64,000 nucleotides of DNA from NCBI GenBank assembly GCA_016927685.1, contig JAFGMD010000021.1:21913-85912 (forward strand), in the 5' to 3' direction. A program made the position numbers and the translations under genes. How positions within the stretch are numbered: position 1 is the stretch's first letter; each line of letters begins with the position of its first letter. This stretch comes from Candidatus Falkowbacteria bacterium. Its GTDB lineage: Bacteria; Patescibacteriota; Patescibacteriia; CAIXNZ01. Shown here piece by piece: positions 6,345 through 12,633 of this stretch. A model generated the notes under the pieces. The model made no database searches. It was not told where the DNA came from and saw only the letters and a list, made by a program, of their open reading frames with translations.

Positions 6345-6419
6345 TCCGGGGTAGCGCAGTGGTAGCGCAGTTGGCTGTTAACCAATTGGTCGTGGGTTCG
6401 AATCCCACCCCCGGAGCCA
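6345..6419 (+). tRNA. tRNA-Asn (anticodon GTT)
   Basis: Manual fold: acceptor TCCGGGG/CCCCGGA, D-arm GCGC-AGTGGTA-GCGC, anticodon stem GTTGG/CCAAT with loop CTGTTAA (GTT), T-arm GTGGG-TTCGAAT-CCCAC, discriminator G and an encoded CCA. Confidence 0.85.
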
Positions 6420-8006
6420 TTCTGCACGAACAGAGGCGAGAGCCTCTGTTTTTGCTTTGTTTAAGGGCAGTATCTTTGGTTCTAACCTTAGATATTCTTT
6501 TTCTAAGACTGAATAACTATTTTTTATTGGGAGAAACCAATTATTGGCGGAAATAGTGAGTTTCCCGTCTTTCATCAAAAAGTTCGAGCCTAAAGCCATT
6601 ACAATGCTTTTCTTGGCTTGTAAATCTCCCAATAAGAAGTTTTTGTAAGCATAAGTAGCAAAGTTAAAGGTATTTTCAGTCAATTCTAACCAACGCTCTG
6701 CTCTGGCTTCGGTCTCCCGTAATTTTTCTTTTAGCTGAATTATTTTTGATTGGAGTAAATTTTTTTCTTTGGTAAAAGCTTCATCATCAATCAGCTCCCT
6801 ATATCGCATTTTGGTAAGCTCATCAATTTCTTTTTGGGTTTTTAGCAAATCAATGCTTAAGCTTTCGTGAATTTTACTTCGGTCTTCAATTTCCTTATCA
6901 TTTGACTGATTTAATACTCCCAAAGCCCAATCTCTAAAATCTGGTAAAATTGTAATGCTTTTTAGTTCATCCAAGATTTGATTTTCTAATTCTTCCTCTC
7001 TGATAACTTTTTTTTGGGAGCAATTTACTCTTATTGTTTTTCTGGTGCAATGGTAGTAAGTATATTTTTTAATCACCCCCGTGCTTTTAATAAACTTCTT
7101 TTTAATTTCAGCCGTATAAAGACAACCGCATTCAGCACATCTGATAAGTCCAGTAAAAGCGAATTTATATTTTTGCGGTCTTGGCTTGCCCTTTTTGCCA
7201 AGTAAAATCTGCACTCGGTCAAATTCTTCCAATGTAATAATTGGTTTGTGATTGCCCTGATATTGTTTGCCAGCCCAATCAATAATGCCAGCATAGAAAA
7301 TATTGTTAAAAATTCTGTATATCCCGCTTTTAGATAATTTGTTATCGCCAATCCTTTTATATTTTTTAGTTCTAAAGCCCCATTCATTATTAGCTAATTC
7401 AAGAATTTTAGGCGGTGTATAATTGCCAGTCAGCATTAAATCCCACATTTTCCTAACCAAGTTAAAACGCTCTGGGTCTTCAGCGATTGTTTTATTTTCT
7501 TTATCGTTGACATAGCCAAGGGGAGCTAAATTGGGCAACCAGCCTTTTTCTAATTTACTTTCCAAACCTCTTTTAGTATTTTTCTTTAAATCAAGGATGT
7601 ATTGATTGGCAACGCCAGTTTCAACACTAAAAAGCAGAACATTGTCATCTGGGAGATATTGCCTATCTATTGTTTGAATTGATTTAAGCGTCCCTTGCTG
7701 TAAAAGCCAGCCTAATTTACCGCTATCAATCGGATTTCTTGAAAGGCGGTTTATTTGCCAGCATAAAATCCCATCTGCTTCGCCTTGCTCTATTTTTTGT
7801 ATCATTTCATCAAATAGGGGTCTGTTATAGGGTTTCTTGGCAGATTTGGCTTCAGTATAAATCTTTTTAATGCTTAAATTCGTTTCTTGAGCTAATTTTT
7901 TTAAGCGGTTGATTTGGTCATCAATTGACTGGACTTGGCGGTCTTCACTTTCAGATGATTTTCTGGCGTAGAGAAAATATTTGATTTTTGATTTATTTTC
8001 GGTCAT
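6378..8006 (-). CDS. large serine recombinase (phage-integrase type; resolvase catalytic domain + recombinase domain + zinc ribbon + coiled coil)
   Basis: N-terminal resolvase motif (YARKSSESEDRQVQSIDDQ with catalytic Ser, WQINRLSRN), a Cys cluster (CAECGCLY...YYHC) and a C-terminal coiled coil. The last 14 codons (WLRGWDSNPRPIG) are the reverse-strand reading of the tRNA T-arm and acceptor; the stop codon falls in the anticodon loop. Confidence 0.85.
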   Translation of the reverse strand: MTENKSKIKYFLYARKSSESEDRQVQSIDDQINRLKKLAQETNLSIKKIYTEAKSAKKPYNRPLFDEMIQKIEQGEADGILCWQINRLSRNPIDSGKLGWLLQQGTLKSIQTIDRQYLPDDNVLLFSVETGVANQYILDLKKNTKRGLESKLEKGWLPNLAPLGYVNDKENKTIAEDPERFNLVRKMWDLMLTGNYTPPKILELANNEWGFRTKKYKRIGDNKLSKSGIYRIFNNIFYAGIIDWAGKQYQGNHKPIITLEEFDRVQILLGKKGKPRPQKYKFAFTGLIRCAECGCLYTAEIKKKFIKSTGVIKKYTYYHCTRKTIRVNCSQKKVIREEELENQILDELKSITILPDFRDWALGVLNQSNDKEIEDRSKIHESLSIDLLKTQKEIDELTKMRYRELIDDEAFTKEKNLLQSKIIQLKEKLRETEARAERWLELTENTFNFATYAYKNFLLGDLQAKKSIVMALGSNFLMKDGKLTISANNWFLPIKNSYSVLEKEYLRLEPKILPLNKAKTEALASVRAEWLRGWDSNPRPIG

Positions 8007-8032
8007 ATAATTATAATTTAATAATTAAAATG

Positions 8033-8150
8033 GACGGTTCTGGTTAACCCAACACACTTGCCCGAAGGTAGTTTTGTCGGCAGAACCGCCCATTAAAAGC
8101 GACAAAAAATAATAAATCCTTCGAACATAGATTGTGTGTGGGTTAACACT
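8033..8150. promoter_or_regulatory. nested imperfect inverted repeats immediately upstream of the recombinase start (candidate att-like or operator site)
   Basis: gttaacccaacacac (8044-8058) pairs with gtgtgtgggttaac (8136-8149). gacggttctg (8033-8042) pairs with cagaaccgcc (8081-8090). cccgaagg pairs with ccttcgaa. Confidence 0.45.
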
Positions 8151-8194
8151 TGTATTATAGCCTATTTTAAAGATTAAGTAAAATTAAATTTCAT

Positions 8195-10403: not shown

Positions 10404-11114
10404 TTAAATATTTAATATAATATTTCCGCTATTATTTACAAATTCTTTTTGATTTAAGCCAGTCTTTAACCTAATATCTTTTACGACTTCATTTATTTTA
10501 TTGGTTATGGTTATTTCTCGTATTGATTTTTTTCTTATTGTTTCATCTCCCAAAGCTGATAATATTTTTCGAGGGTCAACGCCATTATCAACGCCATTAA
10601 GATTTAATACTTTAATAACATCTTCTCTTAAAATCTTCCTCCCCCTATTTTCAAAAGCCAAATCAAAAAGTTTTTTATATTTACCGCTATCTTTAAGCCG
10701 TTTAAATTTTTCGCCCCTCAATTCACCGTCTCCAGTTTCAGGATTATATTTAAAAATTCCATCTTGTCTTATATCTATTTTCTGAAATATAATTTGATAT
10801 TGTTTATAAACCTCATCAAATTTTGGCTGTAAAATATCTACTAAAACCGAAATAGATGTGGGCACTATCCCTAACCAATCCCATTCATACTCATTTAAAG
10901 GTGAAGGTAAATATTTTTCCTTGATTATATTTATAGCACTTTCATTATTTAATAATATCAGGGCTTTTTTCTGTTCTATTTTCGTTGGTATTGTTTTGGT
11001 AGGATTTTGAAATCTAAAATTAAGATACTCATCTTTAGGCGTGGTTAAAAATTCAGCCTTCAATTCTTGTAAAGTCCACCATACAGCTTTATTAAGTTTT
11101 TCTTCTGTTGTCAT
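10404..11114 (-). CDS. hypothetical protein (element cargo)
   Basis: 236-aa ORF. No domain recognised. Confidence 0.4.
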   Translation of the reverse strand: MTTEEKLNKAVWWTLQELKAEFLTTPKDEYLNFRFQNPTKTIPTKIEQKKALILLNNESAINIIKEKYLPSPLNEYEWDWLGIVPTSISVLVDILQPKFDEVYKQYQIIFQKIDIRQDGIFKYNPETGDGELRGEKFKRLKDSGKYKKLFDLAFENRGRKILREDVIKVLNLNGVDNGVDPRKILSALGDETIRKKSIREITITNKINEVVKDIRLKTGLNQKEFVNNSGNIILNI

Positions 11115-11227
11115 AGTAATTTAGGCTAATTTTCATAGTAATATATCTATATTTTAGCTTATTTTGATTACTTTTTCAAGATTTCAAAAGCCCTTTTAAA
11201 ATTTATCGTGTTTTGATACAATATAAG

Positions 11228-11350
11228 TGTTCACCCATAACGAAATAACCTAAAGGGAAGCTGTCCATTCATTAGCCAATTATGGCTGGAAATGGGCAGT
11301 CGAGTTCCATAATTGGCTCTCCCTTTGGGTGAACCGTTATGGGTGAACAG
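11228..11350. repeat. about 122-bp imperfect palindrome with an iteron-like GTTCACCC/ATAACG motif, followed by a small intrinsic terminator (11351-11373)
   Basis: The left arm (tgttcacccataacg ... aaaggga ... agccaattatgg) is mirrored by the right arm (ccataattggct ... tcccttt ... cgttatgggtgaac). gggtgaac occurs twice on the right. Then acagcTCGgctgt + ccttttttatt. Confidence 0.5.
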
Positions 11351-11411
11351 CTCGGCTGTCCTTTTTTATTTAACTTAAATATAAAATTAAATCTTAATCT
11401 TAATCATTTTT

Positions 11412-11999
11412 ATGGAAAACGAATTAAAAAACAACTCAAAAAGTAAAAAACCGATTTATAAAAAATGGTGGTTCTGGGTGATTATTTTCTTTTTTGTAAT
11501 GGGCATAAAGGGATTTATCGGAAATTCCATCATAACTACAGATAATACAAATAATCCCGTTAATGCTCCAAAAGAAATTGAAAATTGGAAATATGGTGAA
11601 AATGTAGATAAAATGACATCTGAAAAAATATATTATGCATACACAACTTCGACTAATCGGATTGACTTTGATTTCCCTTACAATGGTGGCTCAAATTTTC
11701 AACTGCTAGTTAGAAATGGGGGCAAAAAAAATGAGATACTTTTAAGTGTCTCTAAGGGGCAGTTTATGACAAGCATTGGTTATTCTGATGTAAGAGTTAA
11801 ATTTGATGACAATAAACCAATTGTTATAAATTATAGTTCTCCTTCAGATGGAAGTTATGATACTATATTTCTTAAGCAATCAGATACTTTAATATCTGAA
11901 TTAAAAAAGAGTAAGAAGGTCATTGTTGAAGCCGAATTTTTTGATGAAGGCAACCAACTAATAGAATTTAATGTAGAGGGTTTTAAATGGGATAAATAG
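11412..11999 (+). CDS. hypothetical membrane-anchored protein
   Basis: 195 aa with an N-terminal TM helix (WWFWVIIFFFVMGI) followed by a soluble domain. Confidence 0.4.
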   Translation: MENELKNNSKSKKPIYKKWWFWVIIFFFVMGIKGFIGNSIITTDNTNNPVNAPKEIENWKYGENVDKMTSEKIYYAYTTSTNRIDFDFPYNGGSNFQLLVRNGGKKNEILLSVSKGQFMTSIGYSDVRVKFDDNKPIVINYSSPSDGSYDTIFLKQSDTLISELKKSKKVIVEAEFFDEGNQLIEFNVEGFKWDK

Positions 12000-12245: not shown

Positions 12246-12375
12246 ATTAGGTATATAAATATACTCATTTGACTGCTTAAATATAGTTCTAATGTCATTC
12301 ACGATGTGGAGCAAGTATAATAAAAAGCCCTGCATTTATATCGCAGGGCTTTTAAAATATACAAAAATACGTTTA

Positions 12376-12633
12376 TTACCAGCCATTAGAGCTGGTACGG
12401 GCGCAGTCACTATCAGATTCACATAGATTGGGAATTGCGCATAAAAACTCAGGTAAAAGATATTTTATACGCTCTCCTAAAGTAAATTTACGCAAGTGTT
12501 TTTGTGGTTTATCCACCCATCTTAGCAAGGGCATCCTCGTATACCTGAACCAGATGCCGTCAGCTAATACTAGTGTGCCAATGCTGATAACAATGGTTAA
12601 GATAATTATCCCAGGTAAAAAAGCGTACCACAT
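12376..12633 (-). CDS. hypothetical small membrane protein
   Basis: 85 aa with an N-terminal TM helix. Confidence 0.3.
   Translation of the reverse strand: MWYAFLPGIIILTIVISIGTLVLADGIWFRYTRMPLLRWVDKPQKHLRKFTLGERIKYLLPEFLCAIPNLCESDSDCARTSSNGW

Follow-up and report, generated by a model that had tools for sequence, protein, structure and literature searches.

The window, that is the whole stretch of 64,000 nt analysed here, derives from a genome of Candidatus Falkowbacteria, a member of the candidate phyla radiation (CPR), and hosts an integrative element of about 6 kb that is integrated at a tRNA-Asn gene and carries a large serine recombinase. The element contains an imperfect palindrome, 5 kb from the tRNA-Asn integration site, that is part of a putative structured RNA (E1), and a sister copy (E2) that precedes the recombinase gene. 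Its main genes and signals are the following:

6345-6419, + strand: tRNA-Asn gene, overlapped by the 3' end of the recombinase gene
6378..8006, - strand: large serine recombinase (Pfam Resolvase, Recombinase and Zn_ribbon_recom), with its ATG at 8006
8020..8150, - strand: E2, a predicted structured RNA paralogous to E1, immediately before the recombinase gene
8154..8182, - strand: predicted E2 promoter (TTTACT, 17 nt, TATAAT; promoter scan)
11195..11222, + strand: predicted E1 promoter (TTTAAA, 16 nt, TG-n-TACAAT; promoter scan), with an extended -10 at 11214-11222
11228..11372, + strand: E1, a putative leader or small RNA, about 145 nt long, that begins at the stem base and closes with the U-run (fold z-score -8.3)
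11412..11999, + strand: first cargo gene, encoding a 195-aa membrane protein with superinfection-exclusion-like PHROG matches

The cargo gene at 11412 starts 40 nt past the U-run of E1. Its product has a homologue at the equivalent position of one other element (locus L104; loci are given below as L numbers), and in other elements the same slot is taken by restriction-modification or methylase genes. The protein adjoining E1 is non-homologous between elements that have the same RNA and the same closing stem (P1). The superinfection-exclusion-like protein matched 34 viral contigs, in each case only via its N-terminal membrane segment, and none of these contigs has an E1 RNA. The two neighbouring ORFs of 236 and 299 aa gave no Pfam, PHROG, NCBIfam or PDB-sequence match; the former has a single distant homologue (P0002) and the latter none, and a profile-based locus search with the 236-aa family returned nothing from genome, viral or metagenome contigs. 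The E1-bearing relatives are integrated at tRNA genes, have a DUF5659 gene besides their serine recombinase, and carry E1 at the matching position. Sister elements probably replicate, since they encode primases (Toprim or DnaG zinc ribbon). The DUF5659 protein was considered as an RNA- or DNA-binding partner and set aside: its AlphaFold model is confident (pLDDT 89.7), but fold comparison with the PDB gave no match better than E 0.4. A literature search yielded no paper that mentions DUF5659, nor any dealing with integrative elements of Patescibacteria that carry a serine recombinase.

The initial annotation had described a palindrome at 11228-11349, followed by a hairpin with a T-run and having an alternative inner pairing, and all of these were found. 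The outer arms TGTTCACCCATAACG (11228-11242) and CGTTATGGGTGAACA (11335-11349) pair perfectly over 15 of 15 positions; second-tier arms are formed by ACCTAAAGGGA (11248-11258) and TCCCTTTGGGT (11320-11330), and the inner arms AGCCAATTATGG (11274-11285) and CCATAATTGGCT (11307-11318) are complementary at 12 of 12 positions, with 74% overall complementarity between the 34-nt arms of the palindrome. The word TGGGTGAAC occurs twice in the right half, at 11326 and 11340. Folded as + strand RNA, the region reaches -67.7 kcal/mol, against -36.9 +/- 3.7 kcal/mol for 200 dinucleotide shuffles (z-score -8.3, none as good); the minus strand reaches -59.3 kcal/mol (z-score -6.8). The alternative pairing of CTGTCCATTC with GAAATGGGCAG belongs to the minimum-free-energy fold, and by pairing its 5' half with its 3' half the RNA can form either a very stable long hairpin or a three-way junction (P1, P2, P3/P3'). 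Along the + strand its segments are:

11228..11242, + strand: 5' strand of P1, TGTTCACCCATAACG, with its partner at 11335-11349
11248..11258, + strand: 5' strand of P2, with its partner at 11320-11330 and compensatory changes in RNAalifold
11260..11270, + strand: segment A, GCTGTCCATTC, which pairs with GAAATGGGCAG (helix P3) in the minimum-free-energy fold
11274..11287, + strand: HP1, AGCCAATTATGGCT, which forms a local hairpin or else pairs at long range with 11307-11318 as the 5' strand of P3'
11288..11304, + strand: segment B with an A-tract, GGAAAT-GGGCAGTCGAG, the putative 5' half of a long-range terminator helix
11305..11319, + strand: HP2, TTCCATAATTGGCTC, a local hairpin or else the 3' strand of P3'
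11320..11330, + strand: 3' strand of P2, the inverted-repeat partner (RNAalifold)
11335..11349, + strand: 3' strand of P1, CGTTATGGGTGAACA, pairing with the P1 5' strand
11351..11372, + strand: tail segment C, CTCGGCTGTCC (11351-11361), and the U-run (11362-11372), the putative 3' half of the terminator

Segment A is a direct copy of tail segment C, which itself has two possible partners: B, at long range, or GAACAGC, in a small local hairpin. HP2 is in addition complementary to the start-codon region of the 11412 gene.

Homologues of E1 were collected by a metagenome pattern scan, which gave three, and via neighbouring DUF5659 genes, which gave further ones. The comparison covers seven distinct E1 and seven distinct E2 sequences in MAFFT alignments, a small sample in which several members were found with a model built from the others. 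The E1 covariance model scores the window copy at 158 bits and its homologues at 118-157 bits. A covariance analysis of homologous regions, as the initial annotation had proposed, found the palindrome conserved and its helices covarying: E1 is kept, with compensatory changes, in unrelated metagenomic contigs. Pairing in the helices P1, P3' and B:C amounts to 93-99% and drops to 31-46% once the partners are shifted against each other by 1-3 columns. Eight E1 pairs are changed on both sides, a count equalled in 0 of 500 shuffles, and the E2 alignment behaves likewise; this and the other shuffle controls of the E1 and E2 tests are not to be read as probabilities. In P1, 98.9% of cells are paired over six E1 sequences and four pairs are changed on both sides (e.g. 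TGTTGAACCACAATAG/CTGTTGTGGTTCAACA in L108). In P2, GGG/CCC is replaced by GAG/CUC in L039 and by GGA/UCC in L040, and P3 is retained with a different sequence in L039 and L108. The long-range helix P3' is 93% paired; in four of its pairs both partners have changed, some of them at positions that the local hairpins would place in loops. In L136 P3' is possible and the local hairpins are not. Over the aligned + strand helices we count 18 G-U against 3 A-C cells, an excess that argues for RNA rather than DNA as the folded molecule, and several one-sided changes in E1 and E2 convert G-U to G-C or A-U. The outer 15 bp (P1) are identical in four otherwise diverged E1 copies, a hint of sequence-specific recognition that the switch proposed below leaves unexplained.

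Transcription signals frame this fold at fixed positions. The predicted start of E1, at about 11228, coincides with the base of the hairpin, and in each of the seven E1 and six E2 copies compared a -10-like hexamer precedes the stem by 6-7 nt. At the other end the terminator scan reported a terminator-like site, ACAGCTCGGCTGT followed by CCTTTTTTAT, at 11347-11369. On the transcribed strand E1 thus has the G+C-rich stem and following U-run of an intrinsic terminator, with a local hairpin that is weak (five pairs); the U-run and C are kept in all aligned E1 copies and in L136. In every E1 homologue the downstream gene lies on the same strand, 17-84 nt past the RNA. Two observations speak for a leader: the 30-nt gap between RNA and cargo gene in L038 has no -10-like hexamer, and in L038, L040 and L108 the cargo start codon falls within a hairpin that copies the 5' strand of P1. 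At most loci the spacers are so AT-rich that the presence or absence of a promoter is hard to judge. Of the proposals made earlier for the palindrome, that of a regulatory or small RNA transcribed toward the 11412 gene is the one borne out, by the conserved extended -10 at 6-7 nt before the stem, the U-run and the same-strand gene.

The initial annotation was right, too, in seeing a choice between several folds that exclude each other, and this choice emerges as the central feature. With the single exception of the E1 of L141, an odd copy with no recognisable tail, all E1 and E2 copies have an apical segment B that is complementary to tail segment C. Together with the A-tract and the U-tract, B:C makes up a predicted intrinsic-terminator helix that is incompatible with the big hairpin, as the two share strands; all copies but that one hence have two mutually exclusive conserved folds, one of them with a terminator, as attenuators do. 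The B:C duplex of the window has a free energy of -25.3 kcal/mol, against -10.2 +/- 2.6 kcal/mol for shuffled tails (0 of 1000 as good), and across the copies the duplexes range from -23 to -32 kcal/mol, again matched by 0 of 1000 shuffled tails. In the E1 alignment 97% of the B:C cells are paired, against 78% for the local terminator hairpin. The complementarity is kept in different versions, GGGCAGUCGAG:CUCGGCUGUCC in E1, CGGACACUCCGACC:GGUCGGGUGUCCG in L136, GAAAUGGGCGGUUCUG:CAGAACCGUCCAUUUU in E2 and another in L149, and the outer halves of these four helices are entirely different in sequence. Of 11 sequences folded by RNAfold with the 5' 30 nt blocked, 10 adopt the B:C hairpin. Within the B:C fold predicted for E1, the inner part (5' strand of HP2 with 3' strand of P1) is no better than shuffles, and a designed inner hairpin for the terminator fold was rejected on that ground. 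In E1 the big hairpin is favoured over the B:C fold by 5-21 kcal/mol, so that a switch in cis needs an additional factor.

E2 repeats this arrangement in front of the recombinase gene. The model built from E1 detects the E2 of the window with 22.8 bits (E 0.002) and finds equivalents at the matching place in L104, L106, L108, L118, L136 and L141; the E2 of L149 was identified by eye. The predicted segments of the window copy are:

8149-8134 with 8057-8043, - strand: P1 of E2, which covaries
8091-8081, - strand: segment B of E2, which pairs with C
8042-8032 and 8031-8020, - strand: segment C and the U-run of E2, the tail before the recombinase gene

The 15-bp B:C helix of E2 is 98.9% paired. 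Its two folds are almost equal in energy, and in two copies B:C is the unconstrained minimum-free-energy fold. Segment A is missing from E2, as it is from L136. Judged by these sequence comparisons, E1 and E2 make up a new RNA family with clear covariation, of which one element carries two paralogous classes. They may control, and at least precede, a recombinase and defence or exclusion cargo, both of which need careful timing.

The palindrome had also been put forward as a replication origin or iteron site of the element. The repeated GGGTGAAC on which that proposal was built is limited to the window and the near-identical L104, and the iteron reading therefore fails: in the other homologues the inner GGGTGAAC is replaced by AGGGACAAC, TTGAGAAAC, CGGGGATAC or CGGGATGAAC, and what is conserved are covarying helices rather than repeated words. 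Where an iteron array has at least three conserved direct repeats, the palindrome has two copies of TGGGTGAAC, the inner of which is missing in L038, L039, L040, L108 and L136. The pattern TGGGTGAACN5TGGGTGAAC had 63 matches in genome contigs, all in unrelated organisms and judged to be chance, and of four matches of the iteron pattern in metagenomes one (L037) is a chance match within a coding region. No initiator is recognisable among the neighbouring ORFs, the place proposed for such a search, and the strand bias of the G-U pairs is a further argument against an origin. The suggestion of a recombination site is not supported either: integration is at tRNA-Asn, at the opposite end of the element, and the palindrome has no significant match to either element end. 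A wider reading as a site acting at the DNA level, be it an iteron origin, a set of repressor operators (with TGTTCACC half-sites at +1 and beyond) or a recombination site that the element uses as a hairpin or cruciform, would account for the identity of the 15-bp outer arms in four diverged copies. It would also fit the finding that L038, L040 and L108 have the motif a third time, at the start codon of the cargo gene, as well as the probable replication of the primase-encoding sister elements; a folded single DNA strand, moreover, would give much the same covariation. We nevertheless consider it highly improbable: the G-U excess points to one transcribed strand, the conserved unit exceeds the palindrome by a promoter at fixed spacing and a U-run, the motif copies covary like RNA partners (L108), elements with the same P1 have unrelated adjacent proteins, and no Rep-like protein was recognised. 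The perfect 15-bp terminal inverted repeats and the length of about 120 bp would suit a miniature inverted-repeat transposable element or another selfish palindromic repeat, an idea to which we give hardly any credence, since E1 and E2 each occur once in the 64-kb window, their placement and direction with respect to the neighbouring genes never vary, conservation continues past the inverted repeats on both sides, and the copies are diverged with compensatory changes instead of near-identical. An integron attC site, or another recombination site made of folded single-strand DNA, is improbable from the sequence, given the fixed-spacing promoter and the strand-biased G-U pairs, there being neither an integron-type tyrosine integrase nor an array.

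Our preferred reading, which we hold to be somewhat better than an even chance, is that E1 is a terminator/antiterminator leader RNA, possibly trans-acting like the P4 CI RNA; from the sequence evidence it most likely governs transcription read-through into the cargo genes. The leader would set whether RNA polymerase halts at the U-run or continues into these genes, which begin 20-40 nt farther on. With the big hairpin formed, only the weak local hairpin would be left before the U-run and the polymerase would tend to read through; with B reaching C, transcription would stop. B:C might form in cis, if the 5' half of the leader is occupied or removed, or in trans, if a copy made earlier, or processed, supplies its exposed apical loop. 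The genes so reached by read-through would be superinfection-exclusion-like genes in the window and restriction-modification or methylase genes in sister elements. A possible but distinctly less probable alternative is a stand-alone trans-acting small RNA that serves the element in immunity or regulation, a 145-nt product ending at the U-run that base-pairs with other RNAs; if its targets are nascent copies of its own leader, it overlaps with the leader explanation. E1 has its own predicted promoter and terminator, B occupies the tip of a stable hairpin, where antisense recognition loops are usually found, and it is complementary to A upstream and C downstream in a layout like that of P4 seqA, CI and seqC (PMC4825925). 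The B:C pairs of E1 and E2 differ, each being self-specific; LOOT RNA, which Rfam classes as an sRNA, fills the equivalent slot in sister elements; and the sequence-unrelated slot RNAs of L036 and L131 (LOOT) have loop-to-tail complementarity of -19.4 and -22.6 kcal/mol, reached by 0 and 1 of 1000 shuffles, respectively. Against a stand-alone RNA, B is paired with A and unexposed in the minimum-free-energy fold of E1, A is lacking in E2 and L136, the window holds no complementary target outside the RNA itself, the C4/CI family and all other Rfam families are without a match, and the downstream genes seem to depend on read-through, to judge from the short gaps and the hexamer-free gap of L038. 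A purely passive element, in which a 5' stabilising hairpin and a leaky constitutive terminator give fixed low expression with no switching, would suit the extremely stable hairpin at the predicted +1 (-57 to -67 kcal/mol), 5'-terminal stem-loops being known mRNA stabilisers, and the five-pair local terminator hairpin. It is improbable in our view, as it gives no account of a B:C complementarity upheld through three unrelated sequence versions, of the duplication of C in A, of the covarying loops of HP1 and HP2, or of the nearly isoenergetic folds of E2. Four further RNA readings were discarded: a retron (no reverse transcriptase gene follows the RNA), a phage pRNA or 6S-like RNA (wrong size, with neither an Rfam match nor packaging genes), a leader peptide (the short frames are unconserved, with an in-frame stop in L040), and a recombinase guide RNA, which gave no significant match to the tRNA site or the other element end; the sole guide-type match, GTTAACCA, is a chance-level 8-mer absent from the other E2 copies.

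Among known systems, the paired cis-acting RNA sites behind the two early promoters of phages HK022 (putL and putR) and lambda (nutL and nutR) offer a possible analogy, in that two paralogous structured RNAs per mobile element would lie between a promoter and a terminator. The put and nut sites modify RNA polymerase and have no loop-to-tail complementarity; E1 and E2 share neither sequence nor structure with them and give no sign of processive antitermination. Terminator/antiterminator leaders resemble E1 in having a promoter-proximal untranslated leader, a U-run end, two exclusive folds and a same-strand gene after them. In E1, however, about 55 nt separate the two halves of the terminator stem, the 5' half being placed at the apex of the competing hairpin, and this hairpin has 40-50 bp and begins at +1. 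Furthermore, the ligand pocket, leader peptide or binding protein of attenuators and riboswitches was not identified for E1 and E2, and two paralogues with different pairing sequences would serve two transcription units of one mobile element. The CI RNA of satellite phage P4 is encoded in the leader of its own target operon and causes premature termination by pairing with sequences up- and downstream of itself (PMC4825925). Like it and the c4 RNAs of P1 and P7, E1 appears to lie in the untranslated leader of a mobile element's own operon, and it shows the layout of the C4 family, with a central B complementary to A (11260-11270) and C (11351-11361). Unlike in P4, the complementary sequences of E1 are all inside one 145-nt unit, E2 and L136 keep the downstream partner only, and the element, equipped with a serine recombinase, resides in a CPR host. 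Neither the C4 family nor any other Rfam model matched: at gathering scores over the window, and up to E 10 over 11100-11500, only noise was returned (mir-515, RUF1 and similar). BLAST against phage and plasmid records gave no match and DNA-pattern scans of viral contigs found nothing. LOOT RNA (Rfam RF03000) is a candidate sRNA from a survey of 224 motifs (PMC5737381). In the sister elements L131/L133 and L149 it takes the place that E1 has here, after the core genes and ahead of a gene on the same strand, and in L131 its tail is complementary to an apical loop and then followed by a U-run. It differs from E1 and E2 in being four separate tetraloop hairpins with no long closing stem; the LOOT model scores 75-84 bits in L131, L133 and L149 and leaves E1 and E2 unmatched even at E up to 10.

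Little is known of gene regulation or of mobile elements in CPR bacteria, which cannot be grown alone. The putative design, with half of a terminator stem parked on the apex of the competing hairpin, is unusual, and it seems to recur at this locus in RNAs of unrelated sequence, among them LOOT, which has been an orphan motif of Rfam since 2017. The terminator switch is a hypothesis that could be tested in vitro for E1, E2, LOOT and the L036-type RNAs. We also entertain, as a speculation that is rather unlikely to be right, that integrative elements of CPR bacteria control themselves by RNA alone, through a family of leader RNAs directed at their own transcripts, the apical B of a finished or processed copy acting in trans on nascent C. 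An intermolecular terminator at the U-run would then silence the RNA's own transcription unit, the E2 pair governing the serine recombinase and the E1 pair the defence or cargo genes. Such a circuit would give burst-then-silence expression on entry, together with immunity to related incoming elements; LOOT and the L036-type RNAs would represent further 'specificity types', and LOOT would gain its first proposed function. The covariance model, combined with DUF5659 synteny, provides a handle for finding this family of elements in metagenomes.

In this Candidatus Falkowbacteria contig, the gene order of the region, from tRNA-Asn through the recombinase and the cargo (the same-strand genes downstream of E1) to threonine-synthase-like chromosomal genes, places the palindrome inside an integrative element of about 6 kb. 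There it lies at the junction of the element's core genes with the cargo, beyond the minus-strand ORFs and a divergent promoter region. The features concerned are:

6345-6419: tRNA-Asn
6378-8006, minus strand: large serine recombinase gene, overlapping the 3' end of tRNA-Asn
From the recombinase gene up to 11114, minus strand: six small or unknown ORFs, one encoding a DUF5659 protein
8020-8182, minus strand: E2, predicted paralogue of E1 with its own TATAAT (8159-8154), directly upstream of the recombinase start codon
11195-11222, plus strand: E1 promoter called by scan (TTTAAA, 16 nt, TACAAT with TG extension)
11228-11372, plus strand: E1, predicted RNA of about 145 nt (palindrome, tail and U-run)
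11228-11242 with 11335-11349: outer arms, TGTTCACCCATAACG with CGTTATGGGTGAACA, perfectly complementary
11248-11258 with 11320-11330: second tier, pairing
11274-11285 with 11307-11318: inner tier, 12/12 complementary
11412-11999, plus strand: membrane protein gene with superinfection-exclusion-like matches
After the 11412-11999 gene, plus strand: gene of a 57-aa Imm_superinfect protein
12323-12353: strong bidirectional terminator of 12 pairs after the Imm_superinfect gene, probably where the rightward cargo transcript ends
12376-12633, minus strand: small ORF between this terminator and the chromosomal PALP gene

The serine recombinase frame overlaps, at its 3' end, an opposite-strand tRNA gene in three elements (window, 6345-6419 with 6378-8006; L134, 10621-10693; L122, 9037-9110); tRNA genes are therefore the integration sites of this family, and the recombinase gene sits right at the junction. 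In L122 the tRNA gene cluster adjoining the element also contains a group I intron (10625-10852; Rfam, 89 bits).

The sequence at 11228-11373 is the palindrome described in the initial annotation, including the right-arm duplication (TGGGTGAAC is present twice there in the window) and the hairpin with T-run, which a scan called as a terminator-like site at 11347-11369, after the palindrome. Folded as RNA, the plus strand reaches -67.7 kcal/mol against -36.9 +/- 3.7 for shuffles (z -8.3), and the minus strand -59.3 kcal/mol (z -6.8). The alternative inner pairing CTGTCCATTC/GAAATGGGCAG, also proposed earlier, is used by the minimum-free-energy fold, which is a three-way junction and not a single long hairpin.

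Rfam gave no family match to E1 or E2, and phage records, plasmid records and viral contigs gave no match to the palindrome. Of the four matches to a metagenome pattern scan (GTTCACCCATAACG, 70-100 nt, GGGTGAAC), L038, L039 and L040 are true homologues, and one, inside a gene, is a chance match. Aligned in the same orientation, the window and these three loci share a -10 box 6-7 nt before the stem, the outer stem, two inner hairpins, and the tail CTCGGCTGTCC followed by a T-run; RNAalifold on these homologues gives 46 pairs, 7 of them with compensatory double changes. All-against-all protein comparison showed that the three contigs bear the same kind of element as the window: L039 has DUF5659, 60-aa and 75-aa ORFs plus a serine recombinase in the window's order, L040 a recombinase gene directly divergent from the RNA, and L038 a DUF5659 and a primase zinc-ribbon protein. 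Further elements were fetched through DUF5659 relatives (597 matches). A covariance model built from these four sequences found E1 copies in L104 (near-identical to the window), L108-L112, L136/L137 and L122-L126 (the same as L039), and in L141-L146 a copy that is weak and odd. Run against 341 kb of unrelated viral contigs, the model gave no match. The E-values of this model are rough. In all there are seven distinct E1 and seven distinct E2 sequences, several recovered by means of a model derived from the rest; as public collections were scanned with exact patterns, copy numbers do not give the family's true spread.

The covariance analysis of related elements proposed in the initial annotation shows that the helices covary and that the pairing of the palindrome is conserved. 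In a six-sequence E1 alignment (MAFFT), the hairpin helices P1 and P3' (long-range inner helix, HP1 with HP2) are 98.9% and 93% paired, and the B:C pairing, of the apical segment B (11288-11304) with the tail segment C (11351-11361), 97%; sliding the partners by 1-3 columns leaves only 31-46%. Eight pairs are changed on both sides, and 0/500 shuffles reach the observed values. P1 may differ wholly in sequence and still pair, as in L108 (TGTTGAACCACAATAG/CTGTTGTGGTTCAACA) and L136 (GTGCTAAACTACATTT/AAAATGTAGTTTAGC). Because MAFFT slipped register in P2 for L039 and L040, support for P2 and P3 comes from RNAalifold and per-sequence folds. The cells of P1, P3' and B:C hold 18 G-U vs 3 A-C, and several one-sided changes turn G-U into G-C or A-U, which to judge from these alignments is the expectation for a plus-strand RNA structure and not for a double-stranded DNA site. 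In addition, every copy has a -10-like hexamer upstream of the stem at constant spacing.

The iteron-like direct repeats of the initial annotation did not hold up: the second right-arm GGGTGAAC is limited to the window and L104, and elsewhere the inner position reads AGGGACAAC, TTGAGAAAC, CGGGGATAC or CGGGATGAAC, pairing with the left arm being conserved instead of the word. The iteron reading therefore fails, and the origin and recombination-site readings of the palindrome are not supported either. The regulatory RNA, also among the original candidates, is borne out by plus-strand structure, covarying helices, promoter, U-run and a downstream same-strand gene.

An AUG in the 3' strand of P1 opens a short frame (MGEQLGCPF..., window 11338-11445) crossing the tail and U-run; it has the same position in L038, L039 and L040, with differing ends, and L108 has GUG. 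Constraint from the RNA probably accounts for the likeness of this frame among copies.

Minus-strand positions 8022-8150 also match the E1 model (22.8 bits, E 0.002), which finds E2 in the equivalent place, just ahead of the serine recombinase gene, in L104, L106/L107, L108/L109/L111, L118, L136 and L141/L142/L144; with a further copy found by eye in L149, E2 recurs in at least seven related elements. It consists of P1, starting about 5 nt past the TATAAT, P2, P3, a conserved apical segment, a tail and a U-run; four P1 pairs are changed on both sides, and its 15-bp B:C helix is 98.9% paired. The element thus bears two copies of one RNA design, one facing the cargo and one facing the recombinase gene, of which E2 is a putative regulator. 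Just before the recombinase ATG an AU-rich stretch, TTA(T/C)AATTATATG, is conserved (window 8007-8031, L108, L118, L136, L141); it includes a TATAAT separated from the ATG by only 3 nt, with no visible Shine-Dalgarno. The 8-mer GTTAACCA/TGTTAACC in the outer stem of E2 (8043-8050, 8142-8149) matches the tRNA-Asn anticodon loop (6375-6383), where the recombinase frame ends; about 0.6 such matches are expected by chance, and other E2 copies lack it.

In all E1 and E2 copies except the odd L141 E1, B at the hairpin apex is complementary to C directly before the U-run, and the A-tract preceding B also matches the U-run:

E1: B GGGCAGUCGAG with C CUCGGCUGUCC
L136: B CGGACACUCCGACC with C GGUCGGGUGUCCG
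E2: B GAAAUGGGCGGUUCUG with C CAGAACCGUCCAUUUU
L149: B AAGGGGCGGUUUG with C CAGACCGUCCCUUU

These duplexes reach -23 to -32 kcal/mol vs -7 to -13 for shuffled tails (0/1000 shuffles reach the observed values). The small local terminator hairpin of E1 is only 78% paired, in contrast to B:C. As long as P1-P2 stand, B and C cannot pair in cis, since B is at the top of a helix some 45 bp long and the tail begins 2-3 nt beyond the foot of that helix. When the first 30 nt are blocked, RNAfold gives a long hairpin closed by B:C, then the U-run, in 10/11 sequences. In E2 the two folds lie close in energy (-33 to -39 vs -31 to -47 kcal/mol), and two copies have the B:C fold as their optimum without any constraint; in E1 the big hairpin is favoured by 5-21 kcal/mol. 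Segment A (11260-11270) of the main E1 subfamily is a direct copy of C and pairs with B as P3, so that B has two alternative partners.

Taking E1 as a transcribed, conserved, structured plus-strand RNA that has two mutually exclusive folds and, ahead of the recombinase gene, a paralogue, as the sequences indicate, we infer that it is a leader controlling read-through. The big hairpin would hold B and C apart, and the polymerase would read on; B pairing with C at the U-run would stop transcription. In cis, the 5' half of the hairpin would be occupied or removed, freeing B for C; the inner helix of this fold in E1 is no better than in shuffles, which counts against a fold designed for cis action. 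In trans, a copy already present or processed would reach the tail of the nascent transcript with its apical loop. This would follow the same logic as the P4 CI RNA, which arises by processing of the leader under its control and causes premature termination by pairing with complementary sequences on both its upstream and its downstream side (PMC4825925). A passive stabiliser combined with a leaky terminator leaves the maintained B:C pairing unexplained. The most likely role of the E1 family is that of a terminator/antiterminator leader, which may target itself in trans; by sequence and predicted structure it is a new family of structured RNAs in CPR integrative elements.

A same-strand gene starts 17-84 nt past the RNA in every element:

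Window, L104: superinfection-exclusion-like protein
L038: fused restriction-modification enzyme
L040, L108, L136: N6_N4 methylases (ResIII helicase gene next in L109, L136)
L039: 279-aa protein without assigned family
L141: 139-aa ORF without assigned family, then a macro-domain gene

The 30-nt gap between RNA and cargo gene in L038 holds no -10-like hexamer, so this gene seems dependent on read-through. The cargo start codon lies inside a small hairpin in L038 (3807-3832), L040 (1466-1497) and L108 (2538-2563, minus strand), whose loop and 3' strand repeat the 5' strand of P1, GUUCACCUAUG (GUUGAACUAUG in L108, where the repeat changes together with P1). In the window the cargo start region UUAUGGAAAACGA is complementary to UCGAGUUCCAUAA within E1. 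These hairpins and this complementarity suggest a second, translational layer of control.

Other RNAs occupy the E1 slot in sister elements. LOOT RNA (RF03000), an orphan motif from a survey of 224 motifs (PMC5737381), is found there with 75-84 bits in L131 (1334-1450), L133 (1-116) and L149 (1569-1687), all on the minus strand; it is a positional analogue of E1, not a homologue, and this position supplies a genomic context for LOOT. Its host elements share DUF5659 and primase genes, with a tyrosine integrase in L131 and a serine recombinase in L149. L036 holds the sole distant relative of the window's 236-aa ORF (product named JW977_02755 in the source), and upstream of it, at 7895-7990 on the minus strand of the locus, another structured RNA, unrelated in sequence. 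In that RNA the tail CUGGUGGGGG, with UUUU after it, is the complement of the apical loop GCCUCCAUCAGG (-19.4 kcal/mol, 0/1000 shuffles); the apical loop of the L131 LOOT is likewise complementary to the tail before its U-run (-22.6 kcal/mol, 1/1000 shuffles). It thus seems that the elements keep the design, not the sequence. The relatives L106/L118 and L134 have no such RNA in the E1 slot. In L106 (2498-4753) and L118 (2427-4682) the slot of E1 plus cargo contains a GmrSD_N gene and a divergent ORF with a weak reverse-transcriptase (RVT_1) match; E2 still precedes the recombinase gene in both.
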